DNA of 63,828 bases, filler included, from Rozella allomycis CSF55 (taxonomy: Eukaryota): assembly GCA_000442015.1 (NCBI GenBank). It is 9 parts of 9 records of this genome, joined end to end, with 100 filler letters (N's around TTAATTAATTAA, not from the genome) between each part and the next. Parts side by side here need not be neighbours in the genome. Positions count along the whole stretch, not along the records: positions 35,158 to 58,417 come from KE561313.1; 8 more parts are not named here. One strand, 5' to 3'. The notes beneath the pieces are model-generated. The model made no database searches. It saw only the letters and a program-made list of their open reading frames with translations, and had not been told where the DNA came from. Each line of letters starts with the position of its first letter. Position 1 is the stretch's first letter. Position numbers and translations under genes: made by a program. Positions 1,942-61,848 of the stretch are shown here, piece after piece.

Positions 1942-2578
1942 TTAGTCTTTGGTTAATGAATTTAAATACTGATCATCTTCTTTTCGAACTTGTAAGAGTA
2001 GTCTCTCTGCCTGACCAGCCTGATCATAATAAAATTTGAAAACAGGGCTTCTTTTAATGTACATTTTGTTACTAACGATGAACCTGATTGTTTTGATGCT
2101 TTCATCTAGAGAATTTTGAATGATGTCCTGTATGTGTTAGAATGCTAGGCATTACTCTTGGGATGTCTGAGTCATCGTGTACAAAGTAACCCACCCTACA
2201 GCTTTGCAGATTTCTAGATATGGATACCTAATGCGATAGATGCAATTTGTTTTACCTATTGTGATTGATGCAGCGATAATACTTGAGTGATTTCCCAGAC
2301 TGGTTTAGCGAGAACTTCCATTGATTTTTGAGTGAACGTAGTTTGAGGGCTATAAAAAATGAATTCAAGATGTTTTTTTATTTCAGCTTGAAATCGTTTT
2401 TGGCGTACACTTTCAATTTCATGTTTGTTTGATTCCAAGTTGAATTTTTTACTGGAATGAAAGGAAATAGAGTTTACACTGAATAGGATTTGGTAGTGTT
2501 GGAGTATAATCTTGGGGAGAAAAGGGAATGAAAAGAGGAAAATGGGAAAAGAATGGATTGCCTATTTAAGTAAGACAT
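1942..2578 (-). CDS. RBFA: Mitochondrial ribosome-binding factor A (RbfA-like)
   Basis: Spliced product: presequence-like MSYLNRQSILFPFSSFHSLFSPRLYS, then RQKRFQAEIKKHL, EITQVSISRNLQSCRVGY, IRFIVSNKMYIKRSPVFKFYYD (RbfA pattern). Introns 2452-2477, 2256-2282 + 2228-2255, 2128-2155. Confidence 0.7.
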
Positions 2579-33472: not shown

Positions 33473-33572
33473 NNNNNNNNNNNNNNNNNNNNNNNNNNNN
33501 NNNNNNNNNNNNNNNNTTAATTAATTAANNNNNNNNNNNNNNNNNNNNNNNNNNNNNNNNNNNNNNNNNNNN

Positions 33573-36106: not shown

Positions 36107-38839
36107 TTAAGTTATACGACGAATAGTAGCAGTTTTCTTTTTGACTGAGCCAGATATTTGAATTTGAGAATCATCTTCCAATTCACGTAGAGCTTCATGG
36201 AGTGCTGCTTCGGTAATAGGCTAGTTAAATAAGAGGGAAATGATTACAATAGTAGATTGAGCTTGAAGATCAGATAGAAGCTGATCAAATTTAATTTGTT
36301 TTGAAGATAGATTTGATATGATAGCAGAGCGTAATTTTTCCAAGAGATCTCTAGAAGCTGAACTTCTTCCAGTGGTGATTAAATCCATGTCTATTCTTCC
36401 GGTTGAGGGATCAATAGCATAGTGAAGAAGAGCGTTTTTAACAAGACGAAGGGCTTCTTGGACATCTTCAACATCAACAGACAAGGACAACCTAGTTAGG
36501 AATGTGAGAATGAGATACCTTGCTTTTGCATGAGCTTCAGATAAACGAATGAGAGATTCTAATTGTCTTGTTGTGGCACTAACAGTTTTTCCAGACCCAT
36601 TAACTTTTCTCATAGAGACGTAAGATTCCACCAATAAATCAGAAGCGTCATCAGAAATTATTGGTTTGATGTTTTCTCTTGCATAGGAAATAAAAGTTGT
36701 TAATTTGTTTATTGGCTATTAATGATAAAAGGAAATATATTACGATTGTTCCTTTGGTGATATTGTTGTAATCTTTAGTGTATAAAGAGATTAAATGATG
36801 TGCCAATCTTCTGTCAGTTTCAGCAGAGGGATTATCTAGCAAGAGATAGATTAGATCAAAGCGAGAGAGAAGAGTTGGTGGGAGATTTAGATTTTCTACG
36901 ATTGATTTATTTGTGTTGTATTTAGAATCAACAGGGTTAGCAGAAGCTAGAACAGAAGTTCTTGCGTTGAGAGTAGCAATGATGCCTCTCTTAGCAATGG
37001 AAACAGTTTGTTGTTCCATCGCTTCATGTAAAATAGCTCTTGTTGAATCAGACATTTTATCAAATTCATCAATACAACAAATACCACCATCGCTCAAGAC
37101 TAGAGCACCACTTTCTAAAACAACTTGATTTGTTTCTGGATCTCTTGTAATGTAGGCAGTCAATCCAACAGCTGAAGATCCTTTGCCTGAAGTGTACATT
37201 CCTCTTGGTGCCAACTTGTGAACATATTGTAATAACTGTGATTTTGAAACACCAGGGTCACCAGCTAATAGAATATGAATATCACCCCTGAATCTTGAAT
37301 TTCCATTTCTTTGAAATAATTTTGAAGTTCCACCAAACAATTGAAGCAACAAACCTTTCTTTATATCTTCCAAACCCCAGATAGATGGAGCCAAAGATTC
37401 ACTTAATGTTTCATACAGATTTGGAATTTGTTTAATTTCATTTACTATTTCTTCAACTCTTTCTTTTTCTTGAATCATTTCTTCTTCGTGGATTGTTAAA
37501 TAATCACTAGTGGTCATTTCTTCTTGAATCAATTTCATTCTATTATTCAATCTCTTCTTTATATGCAACACATCCAAATATGTTCTAAAAATAGATTTCA
37601 TCGTCCTCATTCTCGGATTCACCCTCACCGGCGCTGATCTATACATCCCCGTTATCTCTATACGATCGCCAGGCCTCACAACATCCACCAAACTATCATA
37701 CACCATCAATGTAACTGTATGCGGTGTCTGCCCTTCTGGTATTTCATCTATTCTAAACTTCACACTATATCATTACCAGGGGTTTCTTGCAATCTAATAA
37801 TTTGTTTATCTGCAAAAATACATCTGTTATGAACAAGAATCATACTGTCTGGACTGTTACATCCATCATTGGGGCACTTAGATGGCTCACTTATAATACC
37901 CTTGTTAATCTCAACATTCATTCCAAATCCACACACACAACATTGAAAATATCCTATTATTATCTCTACTAATTTTTACCTTGACGCATATCTGGAATAA
38001 TCCCACTGCATCGGATAACAAGCCCTTTAACAGACACTAAATTATCAATATCATTGGGATCCAATTGTCTCATATTAGCAACCTTCTCCAAATTAAACGG
38101 TCTAACTTGAATAACACCTCCATTTTCTCCACTATCGTACATTCTGTCATACAATTCATTAGTCACCGTGTCCATAATCGCAATAATCTCTTGCGGAAAT
38201 GCAATCAATTGTTCATAAAGCTCACTTGTCTCTTCCCACTCTCTCAAATCATTCGTATCAAGCGACAAATGATATATCTCAGTTTCATGTATCTGTCGCA
38301 ACATCTGCACATACACACCTTCCCCTCCTGGAACCGCCTTGTATCCCACAAAAAATGACTTGAATGTATTATACACTTTATTATATTGTATATCAGTTCC
38401 CCATATAACTCTAACACCTTCAGGATGCTCTTCCTCCACCTGCATCGTTTCTCGCATTTCAGCATCTAATTGCTGTCTACGTGGCACTCTATTAGACATC
38501 ACACTCTCAAAACTATATATCCATCTTACTTGTTGTTTTCCTCACTTTGCATTTGAGGTAAAGAACTCACAAATCCGTCAGCCAAGTCTGGGCGTCGTGC
38601 TGAACTCGCTGGCTCCCTAGCTGACGACGATAATCCAGGATAAACTAGTGGAGACGAATTTCCATCCATCTTATCACTCACCATATTTGCTATTTTCTTT
38701 TAAGGGTGCACAGTTACCATCTGTATTCGCTCCTTCATTTTGGTTTTTACTGCTTGCAATGCTTGCTTCAGAAAATGGCATATTATCTATGTCATTTTTA
38801 TATCACAGTTTTACTTGTAGAAGGATCCGTATTAACCAT
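36107..38839 (-). CDS. MCM4: DNA replication licensing factor MCM4
   Basis: [42 protein letters not shown]; about seven 26-29 nt introns; start inferred. Confidence 0.95.
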
Positions 38840-38977
38840 TTCTCAAACCAGGGTCACTCTCTTCATTATAAAATGAAGCTGGCTTTTTCCATTGCATTAC
38901 ATACATAACTTAACACAAATGTATTACAAAAAGATATTATGCAACAGCACATACATTACTTATTTTATTTACATGAC

Positions 38978-39373
38978 CTATTTTTCTAATGCCTTTTGTA
39001 ACTGTATAGCATCTAGATTGCTGGTTGCAAGCTAATTCAATGAAATAGAATATAATTTACCATATCTAGCAATATGTCTATTTTAAATTTCAACATTTGA
39101 TTTTCTTCCAAAAGCTGTCGGTTAATTTCTTTAAGCTGTGATGCTTTCTTGGTAGCTGTATCGCCCTCTACAGACACTATTTTCAGCATCATTAAATTCA
39201 ATACCAAGATTCCAGCAGTTGTTTTCATAGGAGAGTTGATTGCCATCCAAATTCAAAGTAATCGGAACTCCAATATCTCCAAATTGTATATCCCGAATGT
39301 CCTTAATAGGCGATTTAACGAAACTGTCTGAAAATCTCCTTGTTCTTTCCTTTACTGTTTCCCATGTCGACAT
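38978..39373 (-). CDS. CBY1: Chibby (basal body/ciliogenesis)
   Basis: ITLNLDGNQLSYENNCW and LLEENQMLKFKIDILLDML; two introns. Confidence 0.8.
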
Positions 39374-39472
39374 TTATTCTTTGTTGTTGAAGGTGAAAAC
39401 ATAAACATTGAGATACAATGCAAAATTGATAAAATGAGCTCAAAATTGTTTATTACAAAGGCTTAAAGATGC

Positions 39473-39796
39473 TTAAAATCTTGAATTCCATATCCTATTT
39501 TCTGAATTAGAGTACTTCGATGGAGCAAACGTTCGTCTTTTTGCCGTTTCTTCCAGGCATTCTACTTCCTCAAATAAAATACCAAGCAACCTTTCTTTAA
39601 TGTATTGGGTAGCGTCAACAACATCTTTAATAGAATTATTGTTCTTTTTCTTGTTTTTGGATTTTGTTTGGACACTTACATTTTCTGGCAAACTTAGAGC
39701 AATCGCTAATTCAAGTTCATCTGATTCTTCATAAAGCGGTTTAGATTTTGAACAATTTAAATAATACTTGTCCTGAAATGCAAGGTCATCTTCCAT
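39473..39796 (-). CDS. Hypothetical protein with UIM-like ELELAIALSL motif (5' exons unresolved)
   Basis: ORF track and motif only. Confidence 0.4.
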   Translation of the reverse strand: MEDDLAFQDKYYLNCSKSKPLYEESDELELAIALSLPENVSVQTKSKNKKKNNNSIKDVVDATQYIKERLLGILFEEVECLEETAKRRTFAPSKYSNSENRIWNSRF

Positions 39797-40038
39797 TCTT
39801 AGGTATTCTGCCCCGAAAATAATTTTGAAAAATCACAGTCGCAGCAAATGTTGTTGTGATAATTAAAGTTGAGGTATTGTTGATAATGTGACTGGTAACC
39901 TTGTAATGGCATAGTCATCTGTCATCGTAATTAGTTTATGGGACAAATAAGGTACAAGTCGAAAGCAAATGACGAAAATCATTTTTATTTACATATACAT
40001 ACACACATTAGTATCTTGCTTGTTTCAATGTTTAATCA

Positions 40039-41379
40039 CTAAACATTATCTAATCGGGGAATCTTAGATTTGTATTGCTCCACCAAGTAACGCCATCGCG
40101 GCTTTCTGCATTGTGCATATCTTGAGCCTCCCTTCCTGATGTTTTGTATCCTGATAGATTTTGAACATTGCTTAAGGCCCCCATAAACGTTTGTTAACCA
40201 ATTATCAGAAAACCAGTCCTTTATCTCCACGGGGTAAAGCCATCCAAAGATTTCATAATGTTTTCTAGAAACCATAGCCTGTGTCAATAGTTTACAATTC
40301 CAGACAATATCGCATGGCCCCACAACCCCAAAATCCTCATTCAAAGAAAGAGAACGAGTGAATTTATCACTCCATCCTTCGTCAAGAAATTTAACGTCGT
40401 CATTCAATTGATAAAAATAATCACAACCCTCAGACATGGCCTTTATAAATAAGGAATTCCAAATATATGTCAACCATGCATTGGAATAGGGTAATTCCAA
40501 ATATCTTACCAAAATTCGCTGCCCGGGAAAATATTTTTCAATGTATTTGAGTACTTCAACGCGGTTCTTGTATTTTTTGAAAAAATTATCATTTCTATCA
40601 AAACCAATATACAACACATAACGGAAGTTTTCAAGATCATTGCTACTTATAGTAGAATTTAAGGTTGGAATCAAATATTTTATTAAAGGTAACGATCTGA
40701 TTGATCCTATACCCTTGCCAAGAACTGGAACACCCAACCCAATAGTAGTCTTGAATGATAAAGGGAGTTTAAAGTGATCGTAATTATCAAAATAGTATTT
40801 ATCAAACATTATGTTGCAATACATTTTATGGTATTTTGCCGATTTGGGGTCTAATTGTCGAAAGTACGTTCCGTTTTGAAGAATCTCTTTACTTTCAGTG
40901 AGATTTAGATACGAGAGATGTTTATGTTTTAATATCGAATCAAGATATTTGTATGACAATTTTGATGAAAAAACAGTACCGGCCTTGATTACTACTATGT
41001 TGCTGGTTTCTGTCAATTGATTGGATACTTTGATGAACTGACAATTCTTCCAGAGTAATATTTCTTGATATTCATCAGAGTCAGGTTTGAAAGAAGAAGT
41101 TCCAATAAATATTTTTGGCGGTATCGTTACTCCTCTCGAATAGAAATGAATTGACTAATTTCAAAATATCCATGTCATTACTCCAACTGTCTCTCTAAAC
41201 GATGTAATGTCGCAATCTTCGTGGCATTCTATGAGTATGCTTAATGGTGTTTGCTGGTTCTGCTGTTGATCGCTGGCAGATGAATGTGGAACTTTTAGAT
41301 TCGATAAGGCATATATTGTTAGAAATGTACAAATAAGGGTAACTGATCTTTTCCATGATAATGATTTGATTTTTTTCAT
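40039..41379 (-). CDS. Type II membrane GT-A fold glycosyltransferase
   Basis: N-terminal TM; a 27-nt intron joins the two ORFs in frame; LYIGFD, WNSL, DYFYQLNDDV, DWFSDNW. Confidence 0.75.
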
Positions 41380-41486
41380 ACTTGTTTACTGAAACAAAAT
41401 GTAAACACTAAACATTAAAGTTCAACTCAAAAGAAAAAGACTGGATTCTAAAAAAAATTGATTAAAGAATGAAAATGTTGAAATGT

Positions 41487-42211
41487 TTATTGGACATATT
41501 TGCTCATAAACTTTCTATGAAAATCGCTTCTTATTAGATCGTTTATAAATCTCTTTTTTGGTTTCTGGTCGCTTCCTCGGGCTTGATTTTTAAATATGAC
41601 ATCATCATACCACCTTTAGTCTTAAATTAGTTTTACCATTACTTTTTCTTCAATTTTCCCGTATCTTGATTCAAAAGTGGATTCCCAATCATCGCTCTAT
41701 TTGACTTTTCTCTTTCTTCTCTTTCTAATTCCTCCAATGCCAGCTTTCCTTGCTCTTTCTTCCTTTCTTCTTTGATTTTTTCTAATTCTTTTAACAATTC
41801 TGCGGTATCATCTTCCTCTTCAGCAGAAAAGTCACTATCGTCATCACTGGATTCGTCATCGTCTTTATCCAAATCGAGAATTTCAGGACTTATTTTCAGT
41901 TTTTTATTCGCGGATGTGACTTCAGTTTCTACAGATGAACTTTTGGTGTCTGGTTTTTCGTTTAATAGAAGTGCTTTTAAATCTCTGGCTTGTATTTCAG
42001 CTTTGGTATTTTGGCCTGGTTGTCTTTAATATAAAAATAAATATTTTGGTACCTTAACTTTAATTTTGTGTGAGCAGCCATATCTCTTGCACCAAATTGC
42101 CTTGTAGGAGGTAAACCTTTTTGATCTCTGATGCTATTTCCTCCAAGAGCGTTTGTCCAACTAAATTTAAAGCGAAGGAATATGATACGTTGGTTTATGA
42201 GCAGTTGTCAT
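41487..42211 (-). CDS. CWC15: Spliceosome-associated protein Cwc15
   Basis: [44 protein letters not shown]. Confidence 0.93.
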
Positions 42212-42290
42212 TTAGAGCAGTGTTTAAGCCACGAATTATTCCAATGATAAAATTTAAAAGGAAAAAAGGAAATTAATAGACGAATTATAT

Positions 42291-44916
42291 TTATTGATTA
42301 TAATAATTGTTGAAATCTAAACGAAAAGCCAAAAATTTTAATTCTGGAGAGCCATGGCAAGACAAATCATTCATGAACTGTTTCAGATTTTTCTAATTAA
42401 CAATGAAAGGAACTTCATTTACTTTGAAATTTTGAAGATTTTGTGCAAGATTTTGAAATAGTTTATTGTAGATGAGGGATTCTTGATTTTTAGCCTCTAA
42501 ATCTGCTCGTTCATCTTGTAGTGTTAAACCCCAAAGACCTTGAGAAGAGCGTTCAAATTGCAAGAGTTTTACTTGTTGTCTTCTGGAATGCATTTGATGC
42601 GCTAAATTTAAGAAAGAATGTTGAAGATTTATTTGTTCAAAGATGATAGAAAACAAGAGTGTTAAAGATTGATAATGAGACACCTAGAAGAAACAAGTAA
42701 GAAAGAATTACGTTTAAGAGGCATCCCTTTTCTATTGTAGATAAAAACATGTCGTGAGAAGTGATGAGTTTATCAATGTCGATTTCACGTTGAGAAATTT
42801 TGTCGAGAAAATCAATCCACGACAATTCAATGACTTCAAATTGAATGAAATATTGTAATTGATTTAAAAAATGATTCATTTCAGCCAAGAGAGTGTGAAT
42901 TTTGAGATTTTCAAAATCAATGTCATCTTTCAAGGCTGAATAGATGTGTTTATTAGACATGTGATCTTTATAAATGTTTATTAGATTGTGCTCTAATCTT
43001 TTAATTCTCCAGAGGAATTGAAACAAGCGAAGATATTTCTCCATTGCATTTAAATCTATTATTGTGTTTAAAGGGAAATTTATGTGAAAATCTAAAGAAA
43101 AAACATCCCATCCAGTATCCTGGTTAGAAATTGGCAACAGCCGAACATCCAATCTTTTAAGAATTTCTTCATGATCAAATTGAGCGTTTGAACTTCTGAT
43201 TGCTGTTTCTAAAATGCCTGTTAAATTATGACGAAATAGATTTTCAGCTGATTGATCAAGTCTATTAGAAAGAAGATCCAACATTGTTTGAACAAAATCA
43301 CCTTGCCCCAGCAACAAATATTTCTTCAATGCTTTGAAATTGTCAACTAGACGATATTTCTTCAACAAAATATTCTTCAATTCTTCACTCCTTTCATAAT
43401 GAAGTATTTCTATTTCTTCAGCCATTTCAGAATAAAATTCATCTTTATTATCTTTATTTTAATAGAAATTACAATCACAATTCAAAATATTTTTTTCTGA
43501 AATTTCATGATTCATTGCCCTCATAAAGTTTATTGATTTCCCAAGGCTAAATATTTTCTCTGCTGCATTTGTTGGTATAAAACATGGAAGATATTCTTTT
43601 CTAAAATAATATTTATTTCTCCAAATGTTATCGCTATTATCTTTGCATGCAACAAAAAACTCATCAAATGGATCTTCAACCACCCCTTCATTAATCCACA
43701 AATTTATCATTTTAAAAAATGGCTTGGTGGCTTCATTTATCAATCTTTCCATCAACGTTTTCACTGACACATCCCCATGAGTAGTAAAGTTATACAAAAC
43801 TGTCAACAAATCGCTCCCTTTCAAAACTTTTAATATTTTTAAAAATTTATTACGAGAACAAAGACGGCAAAGTGAAGACAAAAGTTTCAATTTGTAAATT
43901 TCCATTTGACTAGCAGAAATTATTCTCTTCAATGAAAATAAAGAATCGCTATTGAAATGACTCTCCAAAGTCGCAACAAACTTCAAATACGATTGAAGTT
44001 CTTCATTCAATGCAAATGCAAAACTCTTAAACATTAAAACGATTCCAGTTTACTTGATTCATCAATCCAACTGTGTTTCCTTTCTTACTTTGTTCAATGT
44101 ACTCGTTTATAATTTTATAATTCCATCCACTTTGAGCTAATTCCATCAACAATCGTCTTTCAGTATTTCTTAATGGTTTCTTCATTTTGTATTCATTTTG
44201 AACATTATCAAATCCTATAAACATCCCATCAATGCCCTGCATCAAAAATAACCCTTCTCTAACCAATTCACTTTCTTTATTAACTCTTTTCATCTTTATC
44301 TCTTTAAATTTCTCCCAGGCTTTTTCTTGTGATTCTATTTTCTTTTCAGGTATCGGTAATGATACCATTTCTGATTCCTTTAAAATGAATCCAACATTAT
44401 TATTTTACTTTAAAACTAGTTAATTCGAAGCTCTCTAGAAATGATGGACCTTCCTTTGCTCAAATTTTAATACCTAGCTTACTCCAACTTGAACAGGCTC
44501 AACACCACCTCTTTGAATCTGTAAAAATAAATACAGTATTTCCCATTTCTTATCATACTTGACTTTGTCGGCTAACTGTGCAATTCTAATCGCTCCATCC
44601 ATATGTTCTTGTTGTACCACTATTATATGTCATCTGTAAAGATTACTTTTTTTCTGAATAGCTTGGATCACAGAATTTTCATCTTTGACTACAGAAATTG
44701 CGAGTTTTGACGACAAAAGTTGCTGCAAATAAAAGACTAGCGGCTTCAGTCCTTCACTATCTTCTTTTACTTTCAGAAATTGAATCACAAGCTTTTCTAA
44801 CATCATATTCAACACATTTCTGCTGGGTGTTCTATCTTCATAGTTTGCCTTTGTTCCTAACATTCGCATACAATGTGGCTGGGAATCTTCAACCTCTCAA
44901 TCAAACTTACCACCAT
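42291..44916 (-). CDS. TUBGCP3: Gamma-tubulin complex component 3 (Spc98/GCP3)
   Basis: KKYLLLGQGDF, LFRHNLTGILETAIRSSNAQF, GWDVFSL, RLDFN; multiple short introns; start approximate. Confidence 0.9.
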
Positions 44917-45103
44917 TTTTATCTTTATTGTTTATATAGTAATGAATTTCATGTCTGTATCTTTTCGAACTAAAGATTTGCAAGTACACTCAAGTGTTAA
45001 TAAAAAGTTGGCATTATTCTTTTAGCGCTAACATTTTCATTATCCATAATTCATTTCCATAATTAAAGTATTTGATTGTTTCTTTATTTATATTTGTATA
45101 TCA

Positions 45104-46533
<1,430 letters not shown>

Positions 46534-46614
46534 ATAAAACAATACATCGCGTATTAAAAACTTTACTAGTTTTCTTGAAATTCTTTTAATATTTAACACA
46601 TTTTTCAATTCTTT

Positions 46615-47033
46615 TCAAGTCGAAAGATTCTCCATTGATTCAACGATATTCTTCTGAAGCGCAGTGGTCTTTGAAACAAAAACAAAGAACATTACTGTAC
46701 TTGAAAGTTCACTAATTGTAATATCCTTCTTTCCTATAGCGAACAATAGTAGATTTGGCAGTTTGACTTGGGTAGACACCAGAATCCATTCGTCCGATTC
46801 GATGATAATTAGATTTGTGCTATCATCTTGAGTAAACCAACAAGATAGTTGAGCAGAAATCATATCAATTGATACCAACTGACATTTTTCTGCCTTGATA
46901 ACAACAGAAGCGTTTTTGGTGCAAATAAGACTTTAAAGACAGAAAGAGAATAGGTTTACAAAATTTGGGGAATCTTTTCTGAGATAGCAGAGTTTAGGAT
47001 AGAATTTATCTTCTTTGAATTAAGCAGCTGCAT
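46615..47033 (-). CDS. Roadblock-fold protein, LAMTOR2-like
   Basis: Spliced MQLLNSKKINSILNSA...LIIIESDEWILVSTQVKLPNLLLFAIGK...ALQKNIVE follows the LAMTOR2 layout. Confidence 0.5.
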
Positions 47034-47076
47034 CCAACGGAGACGAATTTTACAATTTTGATTGCAAATTTACAAG

Positions 47077-47414
47077 ATGGTAAAACGAACAATCCCACCC
47101 ATTAATTTGGAGCATGCGCCAATGTGTAAAGATTTATATGATGATTATGTCAAATGCTTTCTTGAAAGTGGTATATTTGGTCGATTCTTGTCAGAGTGTA
47201 AGCATAAAAGGAATTTGGTGGAAAGATGTAGGGGTGAGCAAGTAATGATGGAATGTCATGTTAATTAATGTAGTTTGAAATAGCAAGAGAAAAGAATTTG
47301 AAGCTTGGATTAGCAAGGAAAGAGAAGATGGCTCGTTATCGAAAAGTGGAGAATGAATATTTACAAAAAGAAAATGAAAAGGACAAGTTATATAGGTATA
47401 AGAATAACCTTTAA
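47077..47414 (+). CDS. Twin CX9C COX assembly protein (Cmc2-like)
   Basis: C-x9-C...C-x9-C; one intron. Confidence 0.7.
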
Positions 47415-47521
47415 TAAAGTTCAACGTTGACTGTTGATGACAATACAGCAGTTTTTTCATAAAAAAAGAATTAATGACTGGAAATAACATTCATTCTTGA
47501 ATAATGAAATATAAAGTTTTA

Positions 47522-49957
47522 TTAGAAAGACCAATTTGCATCAACAGAAGTAGCCCATTTGAATTTATCCCTTAACCCTTTGTTGAACAATTTTTCGATT
47601 GGCACGCTATGCAATTTAGACCAAGCAAATGAAATTCTAGGATCAATGTAGTTAGTTTTAGATGTAGAGAGGGCAGTAGTTTTATTTTCATCCTAGAGTT
47701 AAAGTTATCATAAAGATTGTTACTCTATCAGTAAGAGCCAATTTCATATTTTCAATTCTGTTTTTTAACGTAAGAATCTTCTTCTCCAACCTTTCAGGAG
47801 AAAGTTTAGTTTTTTTTCGTGGCTCTTCTAGATCTTTCTTTTTTCTTTTTGGACTTGATTCTTCATCTGAGTTTGAATCTTTTTCCACATCTACTTTTTT
47901 ACTTTCTTGGGATTCAGATTTTGTTTGTTCCAATTTTATTTTCTTTTGTTCTATTTTCTTTAATTCCAATTCTTCTTTTTCAATCTTTTTTCTAGCAATG
48001 ACGTCATCATCTAGATCACTTTCCATTTCCGTAATTTCGGGTCTGTTTTTGAATGTTTTTTCTTCAACGAGATCTAATAATTCCAATCTTAAAAGATATT
48101 TTTCATATTTCAACATTAAGATCTGTAAACAATCAGATGAAATTTTACTTTTTCTTTCAATTTTGTCATTGATGTATCATGAGATTTTGGAATAGATCGT
48201 TGATGGTTACATAAAATGGCTACTTGTCTATTCGCTCTGTTATAAGCTAAAATTTTCTCTGCCACCGTCCCATCGCTTGGCGTGTTTTTTAATTCTTCTT
48301 GGAAAGTGAATGACGCATTGAAAGTACGAAAAACTTTAGCAGTTAACCCTGGCATTAAAGATGTTAAATATTTATTCAGAGAGGCAGTCTTTATCAAATT
48401 TAATCATAATAATTACCGTCAAAAGATTAAACAAAGGTTCGTCCTTCTTTTTTCCTTTCTTAAATTCTTTTAAATTTTTGTGAATTATTTTATCAACTTC
48501 GACTTGATTGTAATAACGAATTGAATCTTTCCCAAGGAAATCAAAAATGACTGTGTTATTTTCAGCTAATTCGATATGTTCGCATCGCAATGAACAACAA
48601 CCAACAGTATCCGCTTCATCTTCACCTTTTTCATTCCCAGCTCTAAGCGCAAGTTTATCAATCAACCATAACGCTGTCGCTCTTTGTCTAGTCAACAAAT
48701 CAGAATCACGCAATTCTTCAGTATTTTTCCTCCTTATGTCCAAAACATAATCCTTCAATTCTCTTGCTTTTTCAAATTTCTTAAAATCAGATTGTCCCTT
48801 CAGTGATGAGCCCGCGGCCAAGAAAACATACTTGGGCGTCATATTCACTGTATCTTCCCATGTGGCAAGCCATGTCACTTGGTTATTATGAATTATATCT
48901 CTCCAAGAGTGTCCAGCAGGAGGGTCAGGTATCTTGCATGTCTTTCCTATATTTATGGTGACATCTTCGGGTCGTATTCTTTTCTTTATACAGCCAGCCT
49001 TTGGATGTTTTCCTCGACCTCTGAAAAGTCCAGGAGGTTCAATCCGGAAATTTCCAACCTTCTCAATTCTACCGTCAATACTTGCTGTCATATACTTTTC
49101 TTCCATTTTTAATTTTTCTTGCTTTATTTTCTATCAATATAAATTATGTAATATACCTCCTTTTCTTCCTTTGTCATATTCTTTTTTTCATCTCGCAGCT
49201 TTTGAAAATATTCATACATTAATGTAAAGTCACATTTTTCAAGCTTTAATATCCTTTTTTTCTATCACTAAATAAATGCAGATTTACATTCTCTGATGTC
49301 AGCACAGATCTAAATCCATCAAAAAAGTTCTTATTGAAAATCGGATTCTTCACATAGTCTGTTTCCAGCATGTGAGCATAAAATCCTGCTATTTCCTCTT
49401 CTTCAGCATTTAGTTTGACCATCTCACCTAAAATCATATTCATAAATTGTCGTTACCATCATACTTTAATGGAACCCCATGTGGTTCATACTCTGGAGGA
49501 AACAAGACACCTGAATGTTCAAGCGTTGTCCATTTAATGGAATCGTCAAAATCTCCTTCCCACCACTTATATTCATTGTTTTCTCCGCCGTTATCATTTT
49601 CACTTTGTTCTCCTTTGTCCTCTTTTGTCTTTGCATTTGTAGATTCATTTTTATTGTTCATCTTATTCTTCGTCAATGAACTCAAGGGAATATCATCATC
49701 ACTTTCTACCGAGTTTTTAGTTTTCGCTTTGGGTTTCTTTGTTTCCTTAATATTCGCTTTCTTTCTTGGAGTGCTCTACAAAAACAAAATTTCTTAATGC
49801 TTTACCCTTCGTCGCCTAATCGTAAAATCTTCATCGCTGTCGACTCCTTTAGATTTGCGTCTTTTAATAATTTTAGACTATTGAAAACAAATTTGAAGAT
49901 TACTAAAGGAATGTCTTCTTCACTGGAATCAACAGACGGCGTGTCTTTTGTTGACAT
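47522..49957 (-). CDS. TOP1: DNA topoisomerase I (type IB)
   Basis: [35 protein letters not shown] active-site Tyr. Confidence 0.97.
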
Positions 49958-50038
49958 TGAAAAGAGGTGGCGAAGTCAAAGAAAACCTATTCCTGTTTTA
50001 TATAAAAATAGCGACGCCAATTACAAAATAAATTTGGT

Positions 50039-51787
50039 TTATTCAATTATTTCATACGACCATATTCTTGCTCTACAGTCACCCGATCCAGTTGCGAAAA
50101 GCGAGCCATGAGGACTTTGCGTCACTGAAATCACTAGATGAAAATAGAAAACACATTGTACCAGAATTTTTATGACCTTGAAGAATAGCATGCATTTCAG
50201 CCGTCTGAGGATCCCAAAATTGAACCCTGAATAAAGTCAAAGGATAATAGTTACGATCTGTCTTTGGATCCAGATATGGCCCACATTCCATCATTTGAGT
50301 ACGCAACAGAAAGAACATAATCTTTGTGTCCTTCAAATGTGTGCTTGCAAGCGTCTTTGATTTCAGAGTTTAAATCCCAAATTTTTAAGGTTTTATCAAG
50401 AGATCCAGACAAAATCATCTGACCGTTAGGGGAAAACGCAACTGAATAGACAGAATCTTTATGTCCTTCAAGTTTATCAATCGGCTTTCCACTTTCTGCG
50501 TCCCATAATCGAATCGTTTTGTCGAGAGAGCCGGCGGCTATTAACGTTCCATCGGGACTATACGCTACTGATGTTATTCCGCCCTCTTTTTGACTTCCAT
50601 CGTCACTAGAAAGAATATGAACAGCCTATAAATATATCTAAAAATTATTACTTCCCCAGATTCAACGTCCCAAATCCTGGCAGTCCTATCGCCACTTCCA
50701 GATATGACGAAACGTCCATCTTTCGAAAACTCCAGGGAATAAATATCTTGCTCATGACCGTGAAATATTTTCTTTAGTGTCTTTTCTTCCAAGTCCCATA
50801 TCTATTAACAATTTTTTTTTCGAAAATTTACCCTAACTGCCTTATCTTCAGCCCCGGTAGCAAGAAATTTGCCATCTTTACTGAAAGCCACAGATCTGAT
50901 GTATAAATCTCCTTCTCCAGCATTTTCATCTTCTAATACACTCTCAAAATTTATAATATCCCTTACGCTATCTTATCACCAGTTTCAACATCAAATATTT
51001 GAGTTGTTTTATTACAACCGGTAGCTAAAAATTTGGCATCATCACTAAACTTCACACAGCACACTACACTCAAATGATCAATCGAATGATGTAATTCAAT
51101 GTTAATTTTTCGTGGCATATTTGGATTGTATCTATTGGAAAATAATATTAAGCGTTACATGACATTCCAGTCATTTCCCTCTTTTTTATGAGTAGTAGGA
51201 ACTTGGCTCGGGTCGATATTATGAAAAAATGATTTCTTTGGATCAGGCAAAGCCTTCACAACTTGGGGTTGTGACTTTGGCACCATAGGTTTCACAGGAA
51301 ATGTTGGTGGTACAGAATTTGATTGAATATCTTATTAAAAATAAATACAATAATTTACTTGACGCTGGTAAAGAAGGCAGAGAAACTGACGATGAACTTT
51401 CTTCCAACCTAGGGCGTTTTAGGGTTACTGCTGGATCTCCCCCTCTCGCTTCTAGTTCTTTTTTTAATTTAAATATTTCGTCCTCATATCTTAAAAAATC
51501 AGACTCTACATTTTACTGTTGTTTCATTTTTAGATGAGCTCTCTCCAGCTCATAGACGTTTTTTTGGATCTGGATAATTTCATTTATTTGAGATTGAACT
51601 AAAAATAAGACAGACTATTTTTACATACCTAGAACTACTAAAAATATCAGCAAGTACCTTTATGTTCAAAAGATTCTCGTTGCACCGAAAGGTCTTGTGT
51701 AGATGTCTCATATTCCTGTTTTAGTGAATCCAATAGCTCATAAAAACGACTGGCTGAAGTTGTAGCCGCTGGCCGATGCCCATACAT
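50039..51787 (-). CDS. TUP1: General transcriptional corepressor Tup1
   Basis: Tup_[38 protein letters not shown]40 repeats; includes twin introns 51599-51657. Confidence 0.92.
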
Positions 51788-52068
51788 GTTCTTACCCTTG
51801 TCAAAACATTCTCACGCGTTGATAAATTTTTTTTCAGTGATCTAATTAGTCTCAAATTAAAATTTGGGAAATATATTTATCTCCAGAATCTCTAAAGACA
51901 AATTCCTTTTACAACATCTTGTAGTGCTAAATATTTCTACTATTGACATCGACCTTAAATTTAGAGTGAATTTTTTATATTTTAATTAATCCAATTCGTT
52001 TAATTTATAATTTTATTGTCTATTTTGCCCCGGTTTTGTACGGGCTAAAGTATCTTGAAAATTCGCAA

Positions 52069-52569
52069 ATGACAAGACCAACTGAGAAAAGGCATGTTTC
52101 GAATGGCCAAAGAAGCGATGACAGAAACTCAAATTTTCAAAATAAAAGAAGAATATTTGTGGATAATAAAAAAAGTTTGAGTGAGAGGTAAAGAATTAAT
52201 CATCTTTAATATAGGTAAATACCTTAGTAGTTACTTGAAAGGTTCCAGTCAGTTTCAGAGGAGCGTCGCAAAAATATGATAAGTAGAAAACGCGATAGGT
52301 TTTCAGTACCTGAAAAAATGCCAATGAAAAGGGACTTGAGGCCAAGAGGCTCGAATTCAAATTTTCACGGCAGAGGAAATTTTAGAGGTTCATCAAGTGC
52401 ATCAAGAAGCAAAAATCTATCCAGAATCTCGAGAAATAATAAAATGCCTCTTGACAAAGAAAAGCTCGATGCGGATTTAGACAAATACATGATGAAAAAT
52501 GAGAACTTCGCAAAGGCAAAGCTAGACGAAGAGTTGGATAATTACATGGCTATGGACGAGAAAGAATAA
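52069..52569 (+). CDS. CHTOP/FoP-duplication RNA-binding protein
   Basis: SLSERF motif after splicing, RG-rich middle, duplicated LDADLDKYM/LDEELDNYM. Confidence 0.75.
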
Positions 52570-52633
52570 ATAAATGCCAATTTTTACCAATCTTCTTTGT
52601 TTATTTTGTTACTTCGCCACATTGACATAAGTT

Positions 52634-53375
52634 ATGCATTTATTTGGTAGGGCGAAGCCAAAAAGCACTCCTAAAGATGCTATAGCAACTCTAAGAGATG
52701 CACTGGAAATGTTAGATAAACGAGAAAAACACCTTGAGGTGAGGTATAATAATGAAACAAAAATGGCCCAGCAAAATGCTAAGAATAAAACAGGTAAAAA
52801 CATTTTCCCTCAAATTACACAGGTAAATTAAAACCTCTTAAGTTAGTTAGTGGCTCTAATGGCGCTAAAACGCAGAAAACAAATCTCAAATGAAATGGCC
52901 AAGGTTTCGGCGTCCAAAATGTCTTTAGAAGCACAAATGATGACGTTGGAAAATGCGAATCTGAATCTGGAAACCCTTAAGGCAATGAAGACAGGTTCTG
53001 AAGCACTGAAAAACATCCATGGTGCCATGTAATATATTCTCAAAGCTGTTATTTAGGGATATAAACAAGGTAGATGCAACCATGGATGAAATTCGGGACC
53101 AAATGGATATTGCCAATGAAATTTCTGAGGCAATCGCACAACCTCTTGGAAATGTTCTTGATGAAGACGAGCTATTAGAAGAGCTAGAAGAATTGGAGGC
53201 CGAAGCCTTGCATCAAGAAATGACTGAAAAGCCCACAACTGTCCCTAATCTACCTAAACCTGGTAATAGTCGATTATTTCATATTACAACAGTTAAAGTC
53301 GGACAATCCTCATCTGAGGAGAAGTTGGAAGATGAAGATGCAGAATTAGAGTTACTACGTGCATCCATGACTTAA
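52634..53375 (+). CDS. SNF7: ESCRT-III subunit Snf7/Vps32
   Basis: AIATLRDALEMLDKREKHL, ALKRRK, DKVDATMDEI, DEDELLEELEEL. Confidence 0.93.
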
Positions 53376-53568
53376 TTAAACAAAAACAATAAATAAACAT
53401 AATACCAGCTCTCCAGCTCTAAAATATAGTAATTTTTGCTATGATTTGTCTAATGTAACAAAGATGGTAGGTACTCATAATTTTTCATATATATATATTT
53501 AATATGCATTATCAGATTAAACATTTTATGATTCTCATTTCAGACAAAAGGTAAACAAACCACGGTCA

Positions 53569-54888
53569 ATGAGGACAGTCAGTCTGGTAATGGTTGCATT
53601 GCTTATGTTCCCAAATACGGTATACACATCTTCATGGCTTTCATGTCCCTTATCTTTTAATCCAAACAGCAAGAGAGGTGGAGAGTTGATAGGACCATGC
53701 GAAGTTCCTGTAGAACCAGTCGCCGTAACCCAAGTCCGGGCGGGTGATAGACTTAAAGTTGGTTGGCCTTCAAATAATAACGGCGGGGGATATGTTCGCT
53801 TATCTTTGGTGCCGGAATCTCAGTTCGATGATGCATCCGCTTTCGAAAAAAATGTGCTCAAATTAGGTTGTTTTGGACATGACCAACGTTCGGGTAAATT
53901 TAAATCCGGTGTATGTGTTCATCCTTGCAATGGTAGGCCGGGCTGTCAATTTCAGTCTTCTGTAAATGACAATGAACGTTATGATACAACAATTTCAATT
54001 CCTTTCAATATTCCCAATGGTTTATACATTTTGCAATGGGTTGCATTGATAGGAAATAATGTTAGGCCATACTACAGTTGTGCTAAACTTTCAGTAACAG
54101 GCGGGAATGTCAGTATTAATTGTAACGTGCCAAAGTCCATCAACATTCCAACTTGTATAAAGGCTTCCGGACCAACATCGAGTCAGATTTTGCCGGAAGG
54201 ATCAAAATATGGAAACTTCTGCTATGGTTCTCAAGGATCATCTAATATTGATTATAACATTAGCCAGAAACCTGCAAATGCAAATTGTGATCCCAGGGTT
54301 TCTTGTTCTTTATCTGTTTCCGAAAGTATTTGTAAACAAGAAATAACGCAAAATTTTGATTCCAACAACCCCTTTATTAAAAGTTGTCCCATTGATTCGA
54401 CTGCAACAAAGACTACGACAATGTCATCAACTGTTACGTCTACCCTTACTTTATCCAGTAGCACATTTACTACACGTCCATCGACGACTACATTGATTAC
54501 AACAGTAACAAAAAGTACTACCAAGATTTCATCGACTACTTCTGCAACTAAAACTACTATTCCGACAACTACTGCAACAACAGTAATTAAAACTACTACA
54601 AAGATTACGTCAACTACTGAAACTACAACAAACGTTCCATCAACCTCTCCAACCAAGACTACCAATTTACCGACATCTACTCCTCCATCTCCGACCTGCC
54701 CAATAAATGGACAAAAGTGCAACATATCTCCAGATAAATTCTTCTGCGTAGGAAAGGCTATTGGAAGATGTGTTTCTAATCAATATGTAGTGTTCAACTG
54801 CGCGCCTGGGACAAAATGTAGAATTGTAAGTGGAACGGCGATATGTGATTTTGATGACAAAAAACCTGACGCGCCTTGTTTATTTTAA
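53569..54888 (+). CDS. Secreted EnP1-like / LPMO-like Cys-rich protein with Thr-rich linker and CBM19-like C-terminal domain
   Basis: Signal peptide; AGDRLKVGW..YVRLSLVPE..FEKNV..YILQW..YYSCAKLSVTGG; CVSNQYVVFNCAPGTKC. Confidence 0.65.
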   Translation: MRTVSLVMVALLMFPNTVYTSSWLSCPLSFNPNSKRGGELIGPCEVPVEPVAVTQVRAGDRLKVGWPSNNNGGGYVRLSLVPESQFDDASAFEKNVLKLGCFGHDQRSGKFKSGVCVHPCNGRPGCQFQSSVNDNERYDTTISIPFNIPNGLYILQWVALIGNNVRPYYSCAKLSVTGGNVSINCNVPKSINIPTCIKASGPTSSQILPEGSKYGNFCYGSQGSSNIDYNISQKPANANCDPRVSCSLSVSESICKQEITQNFDSNNPFIKSCPIDSTATKTTTMSSTVTSTLTLSSSTFTTRPSTTTLITTVTKSTTKISSTTSATKTTIPTTTATTVIKTTTKITSTTETTTNVPSTSPTKTTNLPTSTPPSPTCPINGQKCNISPDKFFCVGKAIGRCVSNQYVVFNCAPGTKCRIVSGTAICDFDDKKPDAPCLF

Positions 54889-54924
54889 TAAAATATAAAT
54901 ATTATAAGAAATGTTCGGTGTTTA

Positions 54925-56897
54925 TTAAGTTTGAGTTAAGTTGTCTATCAGATGATTGTGTTCTACGGAAGGAGGCTTGTTATCATGACATGTTTCAATT
55001 GACTTATACCAGGCATCTTCCATTATGTCGTTAACGTTTATTCTCTTTTTACAATCCGGTTCAAGAATCTTAAACATAAGTTCTTTGGCGCCACTAGGTA
55101 ACCGGGCTAATGGTTCAAACTGAATACCTCTGTGCTCAACGAAATAACAATAATTAGGGTCTTCAATAGTAGCTTTGGCCCAAGGTATACCCCTAAAAGT
55201 TGTTGCGTAATAAATGATCCCACACGCCCAAATGTCAACTAACCGAGCGTCATACTCAGTTTGGGTGAATTCTTCTGGTGCAATGTACGGAGTTGAGCCA
55301 CAGACCCCTTTAGATAAATGAGGCTTCTTCTCCCAGCATATTCTAAACACTTCGGAGACTCCAAAGTCAGTTATCTTTAGCCTTCCATGCATGTCAATCA
55401 ATAAATTTTCAGGTTTCAAATCTCTATGAGCAACACCAACTGAATGAAGGTAACTAACTCCTTGAATAAGTTGCTTGAAACAGCAATCAATTTCTACAAC
55501 CGTCATCTGCCCACCACGAATAATCGAATACAAATCTCCACCTTTTGACAAACAAAGGAAGGTTATTTACCTGAATAGTATTCCATCACCTCATACCAAT
55601 GGCTTCCATCACGAATAATATCCAAAGTTTCAACAACATTCATATGATGCAACATGGACCCTATGCAATATTCGGAAGTCATTTTCTTTATGTAGTCTCG
55701 ATACGCTTCATCCTTTTTCTTCTTTCGAAATTCTTTTATTGCAAATACTTTCTCTCCAGCTCCACGCCTAGCTAATCTCACAGTACCACCAGCGCCTTTT
55801 CCTATAACCTTAGTGCTAAATATGTGATAGTCATCGAATGTATGAGGTTCCATTGGAAGTAGTTTAGGGTTGGAATTGGAAGCGGAATCATCATCATGTG
55901 CTTGTTGAGTTTGCTTTCTTTTAATCTTTGGTGAATTCAAAAGTTCTTTGATTGGATCTAAAATTCCTTTTTTATGCACTGAAACATCATGATGAGATCT
56001 AAACAAGTCAGTTTGACTGCCGCTTTTCGATAAAGAGGGTTCTGGAGTTATTCCACGGGAATTATCGTCATCGTTTGAAGGGCTCAACTTGAGTGTATTC
56101 TTATCTTTATCATGATCGTTATGCGAATGAAAATCACTCTGGGAGGATGAGTTTAATAAATGACTAATATGAGTCTTGGAAAACAATTTCTTCATGTCAC
56201 TTTGCTCATGAACAGAATCAGATGACGATCGTTCAGTTTTTCGTAAAATATTCGGTGATGCATCCCTGGAGGAATGACTTGTTATTCCATTAGATCTTGA
56301 AGAAGCGGCGCGCTTTAGTTTCGGTGAAGTAGCACGGCTAGAATCCGCCGGTGTATGAGCCCCAGATAAACTAAATAACTTAAACTTAAACCGATTTTTC
56401 TTTGTGCCTTCTTGTGTAGTTGACTCTTCACTCTCAATTGATTGTTCGCATTCCATTGTATGGTCTTTTTGCCGGTGGACGCTGGACTCATGACTTTCAG
56501 ATGAAATGCAACCAATCTACTTACCTTTCGAATGAATTGAATCAGGTATAATTGAATGAGATGAATCAGCATTCAATAACTCTTTAATATCTTCATTTTC
56601 ATCGACAGCGCTATTAGTGCTTTTTATAAACGACGGCAACTTTTTCATACTGCTATTGCTTCTTTTTCTGTCCAAATATTTTTCCAAATTATTTTTGGAG
56701 TTATTCCAATGAATTATATTTCCAAGCAAATCATAGGCCACGTCCGAACCAATGAGGAATGGCGTTTCGCATTTACAAACCTCAGCGCACGATGAACAAA
56801 GCCAAAAAGCATCAGAGAATTGGCCTCTGGCGGAAAATTCAGCACTAGTTAATGCGGCAGTACATATCAATGGCATATTAAATTCCAACAAGCCCAT
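54925..56897 (-). CDS. Ser/Thr kinase, Sat4/Hal4/Npr1-type; 5' extent uncertain
   Basis: [44 protein letters not shown]. Confidence 0.85.
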
Positions 56898-56981
56898 CTC
56901 GACGCCAACGAAAATGACGCCGATTGGCGAATGGAAAATTCGGTTTTAGAAAAAACAAAGCAATACGATATAAAATATTTA

Positions 56982-57855
56982 TTATTGCACAAAACTATTA
57001 TCTGAGTATTTTTCTATTCTATGCAGAATTTCTATACAATCAAACATATACTGATACCTTCGATACTTTTCGAGGATACTTGAAAATCTTCACAGAACTT
57101 ATATCAGAATTGTATCAGTTGGCTTACCAATATTGGTTTTATATTTATGCCTTGAGAATGTAAACTTGCTAAAATGCAACTTACTGCTATCTCCCTTCCC
57201 GAGTATTTGGTGTAAAACCTGTCAAGGAAGCTTTGTGACAAAAATAAATGAAATTACGAATCATTAGCTATTCTCATGCAATATTCAATTAAAGAATGAG
57301 CAAAGCGCTCAAAGTCATATGCTGAATTAAGCAAGTAACCGGTATTTACTATTATTAAACTTTTTTTTGACGGGCAATAATGTATCACGTAAGTATCGCA
57401 TGATATAAAAATGAGGCATATCTACGTCAAGATCAAAATTGAGAATGCGCAAAACTAACAGTTCGCTTTCGAAAATAGAATCCCTGATCTTCCAGTATTC
57501 CTATATTATAGAAGTAGTAAATTTACATCGCCAATAGATATGGGTTGGTTCCCATCATGAAAAATAACTCTATCTTATTTCGATGTCAGCATCCCTACCT
57601 ATATGCTGAATTTATAATGTTTCGAAGGTTATGTAGTTCTTCTGTAGTTTTGGTACCCAGATAAAAGCACGTAACCGCTAAAAGATACTCCTCAACGTGG
57701 AAGTCGTTAGCCTTTTCCATGTACTCTCTTACTCTATGGAAATAATATTGAGAAGTACATATCGTTATTGTCGAGCTAATTATAAAGAAATTTTTCATTT
57801 ACACTCTTAACGATTTCCCAAGGTAACGTATCAGGAGGACTGATGAGAGTCTCAT
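56982..57855 (-). CDS. Transcriptional cyclin, cyclin Q/FAM58-like
   Basis: YYFHR, CFYLGTKTTE, EYWKIRDSIFESELLVLRILNFDL; several 26-30 nt introns. Confidence 0.7.
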
Positions 57856-58009
57856 GTCTAAGCCTTCTGCCGGTAATGCAAAAAAATCACTATTCAGGCA
57901 AAAGTATCTGGATTAGGATTATATTCACAAATCACAATTATAATGCATTCGATAAATTTGATTTCAAGTGCCGAAATACTCTCAACATCAATGACATGGG
58001 TCACAACGT

Positions 58010-58417
58010 ATGAAAAGGAAATTACATGACTCCAACCTTACTGTCTTTGACATAAAGGAGTTAAATTGTAATTACAAGGTTCATTATCAACAGCCCTTGC
58101 TACTTGGTTTTTTCAGCTATGATAAAGAAAGAGAACTCCGTATTGGGTGTCAGTCTTCATTAAATGTGTACCACGAAGCTATTTTGCCTGTTGATTTAAA
58201 CTCAAATCAAGAAAATTTTATACAAAAAAGGGAGCAACCAGAGCAACTTGATGCAGTATTTGAGACTTTGCTTTATAACAAAAAAGTTCTGATGCATTAT
58301 TTGCAAAAACGACCTACGATAATTTCTTGGAGAGGAATTATGACAAAACTGATGAACGCAGAAGATTCAAAGAATGATTTTTCTCTTAAAATAGTGTCCG
58401 TTAATGTAAGTCTTTAT
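58010..58417 (+). CDS. RAI1: Rai1/Dxo decapping exonuclease (5' part, truncated by gap)
   Basis: YQQPLLLGFFSYD, ISWRGIMTKLM. Confidence 0.75.
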
Positions 58418-59707
58418 NNNNNNNNNNNNNNNNNNNNNNNNNNNNNNNNNNNNNNNNNNNNTTAATTAATTAANNNNNNNNNNNNNNNNNNNNNNNNNNN
58501 NNNNNNNNNNNNNNNNNAAATAATTAAACAATGCAATCAGACTTTAAAAATACATGTACGCATGAAACACCAATTTATAATTCAACGACAAATATGATAT
58601 GACTTATATTTCTATCAACTCAATTAAATGCCTTTAATAACAAAGTAAACTCATTGTAAATTAATTACCTTCTATTTTGAAACAACCATCATGTTTTCTT
58701 TAACAGGAGCCCTACGTGAAACCCTAATAGGCATAAAAGCTTCGAATATTTCTTTCATAAATATGTATATAATATTCATATTATATATTTACTATAAAAA
58801 TTATTGTAATCTAGTTATTGTCTTTTTGGTGTTCTTCTTATGTCTTTGAAATTTCGTATTTCTTTTTGATTTAAAAAGAAACTACTTTTTGTTATTCTAT
58901 ATTCGCTAAAGCTTTCGGATAAAAATGTTACAAAGCATTTTACTATGAAAATTATTCCACGCTATTATAGTATGTTCTTCCAAAAGCTACGTTCACCAAG
59001 GGCAGCATTTTTCGGATAACAGCTGCAAAAGTCGAACAAACTTTAGAGCGCATTATTATATGATTTATATGATCTCATTAATTTAGATTTTGTCTAATCC
59101 ATAGAACGCAGGAGGACCTCTTCTTTCATGGTTGTTTCAAAATAGACGATAATTTATAAGAAATAATTTAAATTTGTTAAAAGAGGCATATTAATAGCTT
59201 CCTATCAACAGATATTGCTATTTAGAGAGGTTTAGTACAAGGTGATCTCATATATTTCTTTTCATCGTTGCATGATTGAACGAACCATTGTTAAAATTTG
59301 TTCACAAATAGATTAATTGTTTTAATATTAGATCTCCATATTTGATATTTTCTGCTCCATTTCCAATTCAAAAAGATTTATAAATTGTTATCAACCACGA
59401 AAAGGCTTTTGGCGGGTCCTAAATCTAAAGTTTTGCTGTTTTCAAATAATTCTAAAAGTATTTTTATTCTGGCCAAACATTACACAAAAATTAAGGTTTT
59501 ATAATTTATTATCAAATAAATATTTACTCGGCATGTTTCCCATGTCTCAGTAGATAAATTATACTGACTAAAACAAAGAGACAATATAAGAAGTTGTTTT
59601 CAGTGANNNNNNNNNNNNNNNNNNNNNNNNNNNNNNNNNNNNNNNNNNNNTTAATTAATTAANNNNNNNNNNNNNNNNNNNNNNNNNNNNNNNNNNNNNN
59701 NNNNNNC

Positions 59708-61644: not shown

Positions 61645-61848
61645 AATAGTTTATTTAAATTAATCTATTTCCATTGATGTGATTGCTTGCTTGTAGATAC
61701 TCATGCTTCGTGCGACAAATGCTTCTAAGTGATAGACAGCCTTGCTACNNNNNNNNNNNNNNNNNNNNNNNNNNNNNNNNNNNNNNNNNNNNTTAATTAA
61801 TTAANNNNNNNNNNNNNNNNNNNNNNNNNNNNNNNNNNNNNNNNNNNN

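Follow-up and report, generated by a model that had tools for sequence, protein, structure and literature searches.

How is an intervening sequence of 57 nucleotides (nt) removed from a gene in a genome whose introns are about half that length? The question is raised by the SNF7 gene of Rozella allomycis CSF55, a member of the parasitic sister lineage of Microsporidia. We analyzed one window of its genome (the whole stretch of DNA examined, 63,828 nt, or about 64 kilobases [kb]), along which all coordinates are counted and from which all intron statistics are drawn. An earlier note on this DNA had laid out positions 52794 to 52850 as ACA G/29 nt/28 nt/TG GCT, with two introns back to back, and the letters of the sequence agree with that layout exactly. 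Our comparisons indicate that all 57 nt have to leave the messenger RNA (mRNA) and that they probably do so as two mini-introns, one after the other. The gene model on which this rests is as follows.

52634..52793, + strand: SNF7 exon 1, with the ATG at 52634 and the end ...AAA ACA G in phase 1; aligns with the N termini of six fungal Snf7 proteins
52794..52822, + strand: SNF7 tandem mini-intron unit 1, 29 nt, GTAAAA...CACAG, letters gtaaaaacattttccctcaaattacacag
52823..52850, + strand: SNF7 tandem mini-intron unit 2, 28 nt, GTAAAT...GTTAG, letters gtaaattaaaacctcttaagttagttag
52851..53028, + strand: SNF7 exon 2, starting TG GCT CTA ATG GCG CTA AAA CGC AGA AAA
53029..53056, + strand: SNF7 intron 2, single, 28 nt
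53057..53262, + strand: SNF7 exon 3, with a Pfam Snf7 match
53263..53292, + strand: SNF7 intron 3, single, 30 nt; the spliced model is open up to the stop
53293..53375, + strand: SNF7 exon 4, with the stop TAA at 53373-53375 and the C-terminal DEDAEL..LRASM as in the orthologue alignment

Exons 2 and 3 each scored above the gathering cutoff of the Pfam Snf7 family (PF03357; 27.3 bits). The product of exon 2 (P0001) matched profile positions 43 to 101 (40.5 bits; E, 2.9e-10), and the product of exon 3 (P0002) matched positions 103 to 168 (57.3 bits; E, 2e-15). Exon 1 translates as MHLFGRAKPK...AKNKT, and the SNF7 reading from the ATG at 52634 is MHLFGRAKPKSTPKDAIATLRDALEMLDKREKHLEVRYNNETKMAQQNAKNKT. 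The spliced model has 208 amino acids and one terminal stop; it was identical to a chytrid Snf7 (P0125) at 124 of 218 positions, with 1 gap among columns 1 to 120. On the strength of these alignments, we identify the gene at 52634-53375 as Snf7/CHMP4 (ESCRT-III), collinear with fungal and yeast Snf7. Among the relatives of 72 to 231 amino acids returned, no public Rozella Snf7 protein was found, although the neighboring FoP-domain gene is represented by a public model. For SNF7, such a model may be absent, may be wrongly split, or may fall outside that size range.

Read without splicing, the stretch at 52794-52850 gives GKNIFPQITQVN-stop-NLLS-stop-L; its 57 nt keep the frame but contain a TAA and a TAG, both inside unit 2. 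After removal, the product reads ...QQNAKNKTVALMALKRRK.... We aligned the read-through of exons 1 and 2, with X at the stops (P0124), to the six fungal Snf7 proteins, and the 19 read-through residues formed a single clean insertion, with KNKT/VALMALKRRK falling on KNKR/VALMALKRKK. The same read-through spread 117 residues over 100 positions of the Pfam Snf7 profile (positions 2 to 101; 53.7 bits), and yeast Snf7 structures (5fd7 and others; 5fd7_A match, E of 4.1e-14) likewise showed the stretch as extra. Because the read-through carries stops and a 19-residue insertion relative to orthologues, Snf7 structures in the PDB, and Pfam, sequence comparison indicates that the 57 nt must leave the mRNA. 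The earlier note had proposed that their removal restores the conserved Snf7 spacing and that two complete GTAA..AG units leave no room for a micro-exon. Fungal alignment, Pfam, and yeast structures concur on the first point; as to the second, the orthologue alignment requires exactly 57 nt to be taken out, and a micro-exon is neither needed nor able to fit. The only AG of unit 1 is its own acceptor, and the only usable GT of unit 2 is its own donor.

To place the two units among the introns of this genome, we compared them with the other introns of the window. A length-agnostic exon-chaining script returned 39 introns of 21 to 32 nt and 10 longer ones, and 44 single introns, curated by eye and by homology, served as the reference set. 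These ranged from 21 to 32 nt with a mode of 26 to 28 nt (26 nt, n = 11; 27 nt, n = 8; 28 nt, n = 11; 29 nt, n = 5; 30 nt, n = 3). In a tally of donors from 38 introns, A was found at +3 in 37 and at +4 in 36, and the consensus consists of a GTAA donor and an A-T/A-A-G acceptor. Introns of ∼30 nt in the Rozella S23 gene are also noted in a passage of PMC6349667. Introns here are thus ∼27 nt long, and the 57-nt interruption is therefore about twice the normal size. Each of its two units is an ordinary Rozella mini-intron in its GTA(A) donor, its AG acceptor, and its length, which lies within the band. The 5′ splice site (5′SS) of unit 1 scored 7.9 bits, at the 68th percentile of single introns, and that of unit 2 (the inner donor, GTAAAT after CACAG) scored 10.5 bits, which exceeds all 44 single introns; the 3′ splice site (3′SS) of unit 2 scored 3.5 bits. 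No single intron longer than 35 nt could be confirmed within the window.

The build of the SNF7 interruption is not unique. A search of the window for two abutting GTA..AG units of 22 to 34 nt each led to three further pairs.

52188..52214, + strand: FoP-domain gene, tandem unit 1, 27 nt, GTAAAG...ATATAG, with an in-frame TAA directly after the donor
52215..52241, + strand: FoP-domain gene, tandem unit 2, 27 nt, GTAAAT...GAAAG
51629..51657, − strand: Tup1 tandem unit 1, 29 nt, GTACTT...TCTAG
51599..51628, − strand: Tup1 tandem unit 2, 30 nt, GTATGT...TTTAG
2228..2282, − strand: probable fourth tandem in an unnamed gene, 27 + 28 nt, junction ATAG/GTAAAA

In the FoP-domain gene, the junction is ATATAG/GTAAAT and in-frame stops occur in both units; the joined exons (52069-52187 and 52242-52569) equal a public CSF55 protein (P0132) letter for letter. 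At the Tup1 junction (TCTAG/GTATGT), the flanking exons 51787-51658 and 51598-51517 matched positions 1 to 32 and 35 to 60 of Pfam Tup_N, a third N-terminal exon matched positions 62 to 77, and positions 33 and 34 are filled by Tup1 residue 43 and the split codon. Exon-end residues and split codons account for the Tup_N positions left between these matches, so exactly 59 nt have to come out and no micro-exon is missing. The pair at 2228-2282 is a probable further tandem: open frames of 93 and 41 codons become continuous once both units are taken out, the unit scores are low but in range, and no homology support was found for it. Across the four tandems, all 8 units measured 27 to 30 nt, with 5′SS scores of 4.2 to 10.5 bits (lowest single intron, 2.5) and 3′SS scores of 1.5 to 8.0 bits (lowest single intron, 1.1). 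The three firm pairs lie within 1.3 kb (51599-52850) in adjacent genes, Tup1 (−), FoP (+), and SNF7 (+), and the remainder of the window held one probable tandem only. Several other matches were rejected. A triple unit at 2196-2282 was discarded when its third unit, of 26 or 32 nt, met stops. At 33999-34060 (−), the first "unit" of a 30 + 32-nt tandem is coding and only the 32-nt intron is real, a call for which the WD-repeat end of this WDR5-like gene was read by eye. Further matches to the pattern were antisense to genes or lacked open flanks.

How often would such a junction arise by chance? We simulated 200,000 sequences per length with a first-order model of real intron interiors and required both halves to be 24 to 33 nt long. 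Among simulated 57-nt introns, an inner AG/GT occurred in 1.05%, AG/GTA in 0.31%, and AG/GTAA in 0.11%; over lengths of 54 to 59 nt, the corresponding ranges were 0.70 to 1.05%, 0.21 to 0.31%, and 0.07 to 0.11%. A plain composition estimate for an inner AG/GT came to at most ∼2.5%. The junction was found in all three double-length intervening sequences that could be verified, plus one probable case, and by arithmetic from the simulated rates the chance of three independent cases is <1e-5. The two-unit build is thus nonrandom. Of the 10 long candidates from the gene parse, the other 8 ("introns" of 42 to 73 nt) were set aside as intergenic chaining, a natural stop, or sequences with a mini-intron alternative. 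The chaining artifacts among them involved the Tup1 stop, the MCM stop, new genes with signal-peptide starts, and the gap from SNF7 to the next gene; for the candidate at 56465-56524, introns of 27, 31, or 60 nt are each possible.

Two-step removal of two self-sufficient mini-introns across a zero-length exon is, in our judgment, probably the predominant route by which the SNF7 stretch is spliced. We favor it because the sizes and scores of the units fit those of single introns, the build recurs, the inner junction is rare by chance, and no single intron above 35 nt was confirmed; from these observations we infer that the inner sites are used. A search for stable RNA folds that would bring the outer sites together or shorten the stretch gave no signal (z, −0.93 to +0.37), which also speaks for two steps. 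Short signals and uniform lengths would imply recognition across the intron, with a length window of ∼26 to 30 nt. Each donor would pair with the nearest downstream branch point and 3′SS, and the units would most likely leave in two successive reactions. Were unit 1 to go first, ACAG/GTAAAT would remain as an intact donor for unit 2; were unit 2 to go first, CACAG/TGGC would remain as an intact acceptor for unit 1. Either order would yield the same mRNA (...AKNKT-VALMALKRRK...). A metatranscriptome run with the same species label, compared with 38500-58400, gave 15 stray pieces of 28 to 41 nt and no joints, and was uninformative either way.

The main alternative is an ordinary single 57-nt intron, removed in one step from the outer GTAAAA to the outer TTAG, with the inner AG/GTAAAT left unused. 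The inner junction would then be fortuitous or a relic, left by a second mini-intron inserted at an old junction or by a duplication. The history of the position bears on this alternative. A search of metagenome contigs with exon 2 alone recovered no close relatives, and a profile search recovered 80 Snf7 loci, none demonstrably from a Rozella species. An ALMALK-type motif was present in 50 of the 80, many of them near-duplicates. In 47 of these 50 loci, the upstream frame was broken and exactly 2 nt separated an AG from the ensuing Ala codon of ALMALK; in the other 3, the frame was continuous (a script had tallied 48 and 2, and L045 proved continuous on inspection). In 24 loci, the script placed the donor directly after ...NK[RKQ], with single introns of 24 to 304 nt. 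The acceptor of Rozella unit 2 stands 2 nt before the Ala codon, as in the 47 loci, and the donor of unit 1 stands at the conserved phase-1 position. The donor and acceptor positions are shared across metagenome loci, so by position the outer sites in Rozella are the ancient phase-1 intron sites of Snf7/CHMP4.

Three metagenome relatives with mini-introns had a single orthologous intron at this position (24 nt in L005, 33 nt in L026 as read by eye, and 35 nt in L002). They are 51 to 61% identical to Rozella over exon 2, a figure that does not fix their distance of kinship. As far as can be seen from these loci, the doubling appears specific to the Rozella line; either an ancestral intron of ∼55 nt could have been subdivided, or a second unit could have been added at an AG/GT junction. 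When looked at by eye for recent duplication, the two units of each pair showed no obvious similarity. The L002 intron (L002:590-625) seems to start with GC (gcacgc...atatag, 35 nt), and no GT donor there leaves an open frame; the same locus has a 31-nt intron at the position of SNF7 intron 2.

One-step removal accords with this history, the position being that of an ancient single intron, at which conventional relatives carry single introns of 46 to 304 nt. It would leave the same final mRNA, and DNA by itself does not force two steps. The public FoP gene model removes the whole 54 nt, and Rozella paralogues of intron-hosted small nucleolar RNA (snoRNA) genes, mentioned in a passage of PMC8476143, hint at longer introns in the genome. 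However, one-step removal leaves unexplained why the inner junction is present in 3 of 3 verifiable double-length sequences and a probable fourth, against 0.2 to 1% by chance, why all halves fall within the narrow 27- to 30-nt band of real introns, and why no longer single intron could be confirmed. Moreover, no donor in the set scores higher than the inner one of SNF7, which is also closer than the outer donor to the downstream acceptor; on general grounds of splice-site competition, it should compete well. We therefore consider one-step splicing rather unlikely as the usual route.

Several observations nonetheless weigh against removal in two steps. One-step use of the outer sites would give an identical product. 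The 3′SS of unit 1, the inner acceptor, scored 1.7 bits, at the 5th percentile of single introns but still higher than the lowest of them (1.1 bits). Both donors of the Tup1 tandem lie in the lowest 7 to 14% of scores, and the Tup1 pair was discovered through the tandem pattern itself. No branch-point motif could be defined from the 44 introns, and a separate branch site for each unit is an assumption. Since L005, L026, and L002 have a single intron, the inner sites appear not to be conserved beyond Rozella, as far as these three loci show. Finally, the intron catalogue was drawn up from a single 64-kb window by means of open reading frame (ORF) logic and homology, and a list of long candidates based on ORFs only was too permissive and noisy (two that were followed up resolved into a 26-nt intron and a natural stop).

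A different outcome would result if only a 24-nt intron at 52823-52846 were removed and unit 1 were coding, either in the main product or in an alternative isoform. Snf7 would then be longer by 11 residues (GKNIFPQITQL; ...KNKTGKNIFPQITQLVALM...), inserted at the tip of its alpha1-alpha2 hairpin. Unit 1 is free of in-frame stops, the open frames connected by phase-0 removal of 52823-52846 span 64 and 61 codons, and the extra residues would lie in a loop that in yeast Snf7 is longer by 2 residues. Yet no such insertion occurs in the six orthologues or in the mini-intron relatives L002, L005, and L026; the conserved phase-1 position would hold a perfect but unused GTAAAA donor; and the acceptor would be shifted 4 nt from the position common to 47 of 50 loci. 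Nor would a coding unit account for the tandems of Tup1 and FoP, where each unit contains an in-frame stop or alters the frame. We regard a coding unit 1 as very unlikely.

Nor do we give much weight to a regulatory role, in which nonsense-mediated decay would set the amount of mRNA according to the ratio of one-unit to two-unit splicing. All partly spliced SNF7, Tup1, and FoP transcripts do meet a stop or a frameshift, but the same holds for any retained mini-intron, so nothing in this is specific to tandems. The three genes also have no obvious common function (ESCRT-III, a co-repressor, and an mRNA-export-type protein), and we judge such a role very improbable.

If the two units are removed in two steps, as we favor, the arrangement has relatives among known splicing systems. 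Recursive splicing, of which Ubx is a known example, is usually explained as a way of handling very long introns. A recursive site is one at which a 3′SS directly abuts a 5′SS, and such an abutment is present in SNF7 (CACAG/GTAAAT at 52822/52823) and likewise in FoP and Tup1. Judged by its letters, the build is that of a zero-length exon, with a junction of the recursive-splicing type. The zero-nucleotide exons ("ratchet points") of flies and vertebrates, humans included, resemble it in their AG/GTAAGT-like abutment, in piecewise removal, and in leaving no exon behind, as described in part of bioRxiv 10.1101/006163. Those introns, however, span tens of kb, their recursion is thought to aid with length, and it is backed by RNA evidence in flies, whereas the Rozella sequences are 54 to 59 nt long, would come out in pieces of 27 to 30 nt in either order, and are known from DNA alone. 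A passage of bioRxiv 10.1101/226894 describes adjacent 3′SS and 5′SS that are used in Schizosaccharomyces pombe, a short-intron fungus, in two instances, for example in the 336-nt intron of SPNCRNA.445. The cases in S. pombe are rare and concern a longer, snoRNA-hosting intron of a noncoding RNA; in Rozella there are at least 3 in 64 kb, in coding genes and with halves of modal size.

The earlier note had spoken of "twin introns." Two complete, abutting units are indeed present, but the label is ambiguous, and the arrangement is a zero-length exon rather than a stwintron. Stwintrons of filamentous fungi are also complex and are removed by consecutive U2-type splicing (PMC5639578, PMC9024468, and PMC8469720, each in part). 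According to the same passages, the internal intron of a stwintron lies within a splice signal (donor, branch site, or acceptor) of the external one. The external intron is functional only once the internal one has been excised, which fixes the order. The Rozella tandem differs because its junction has a full AG on one side and a full GTAAAT on the other, and both units are intact in the primary transcript. Genomes with ultrashort introns (myxobolid myxozoans, Dicyema, Paramecium, and Stentor) are similar in their narrow range of intron lengths, below ∼30 nt, in donors reduced to GTA, in acceptors consisting of a bare AG, and in weak branch signals rich in A, according to parts of PMC13644364. 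In the accessible text of that survey of ultrashort animal introns, there were 0 mentions of tandem, twin, recursive, or nested introns. Our literature search turned up no account of mini-introns placed head to tail, either in Rozella or in other ultrashort-intron genomes; the original Rozella genome paper and all supplements were outside this search.

What might favor such junctions in so compact a genome? We offer one tentative and rather doubtful proposal: the longest intron that the Rozella spliceosome can in effect handle may be close to 32 nt. Ancestral introns never trimmed to a single unit may then persist only as strings of mini-introns, which would make zero-length exons and obligate recursive splicing the rule across the genome. 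The pressure would be the opposite of that usually invoked, a ceiling on intron length set by a streamlined, intron-defined spliceosome, from which internal splice sites offer an escape. If this were true, the 3 to 4 cases per 64 kb would extrapolate to several hundred in the genome, the size of which we take to be 11.9 megabases, and intron lengths would peak at ∼27, ∼55, and perhaps ∼82 nt, with an AG/GT at each internal node. Confirmation by RNA would establish a variant of recursive splicing imposed by a length ceiling and not by great length, and it would make testable what sets the length window of minimal spliceosomes in the lineage leading to Microsporidia. Gene finders tuned to one narrow peak of intron lengths will miss such junctions.

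The window contained a number of other features. A gene beginning MTTAHKPTW... at 41940-42210 (−), read by eye, has two mini-introns of 28 and 29 nt with GTAT and GTAC donors and was missed by the exon-chaining script; we take it to encode a CWC15-like spliceosome protein. An intron-less EF3 gene (26554-29547, −) was 100% identical to a Rozella allomycis CSF55 protein and, together with the FoP match, identifies the DNA as that of R. allomycis. Two 44-N runs around 12 readable bases were present at each of 1739-1838, 9263-9362, 30024-30123, 33473-33572, 35058-35157, 58418-58517, 59607-59706, and 61749-61848, and 18 single N's lie between 529 and 26440; the N stretches break several reading frames and limit the gene models there. 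An identical 38-nt string (GTACCAATTGG...AAAAAG) occurs at 13977-14014 and 14412-14449 (+), 435 nt apart, inside overlapping long ORFs (12960-14864), and could be a repeated or mobile element. Directly after SNF7, at 53569-54888 (+), lies a gene for a secreted protein of 439 amino acids with a weak match to AA9 (lytic polysaccharide monooxygenase; E, 5e-5), below the Pfam cutoff.
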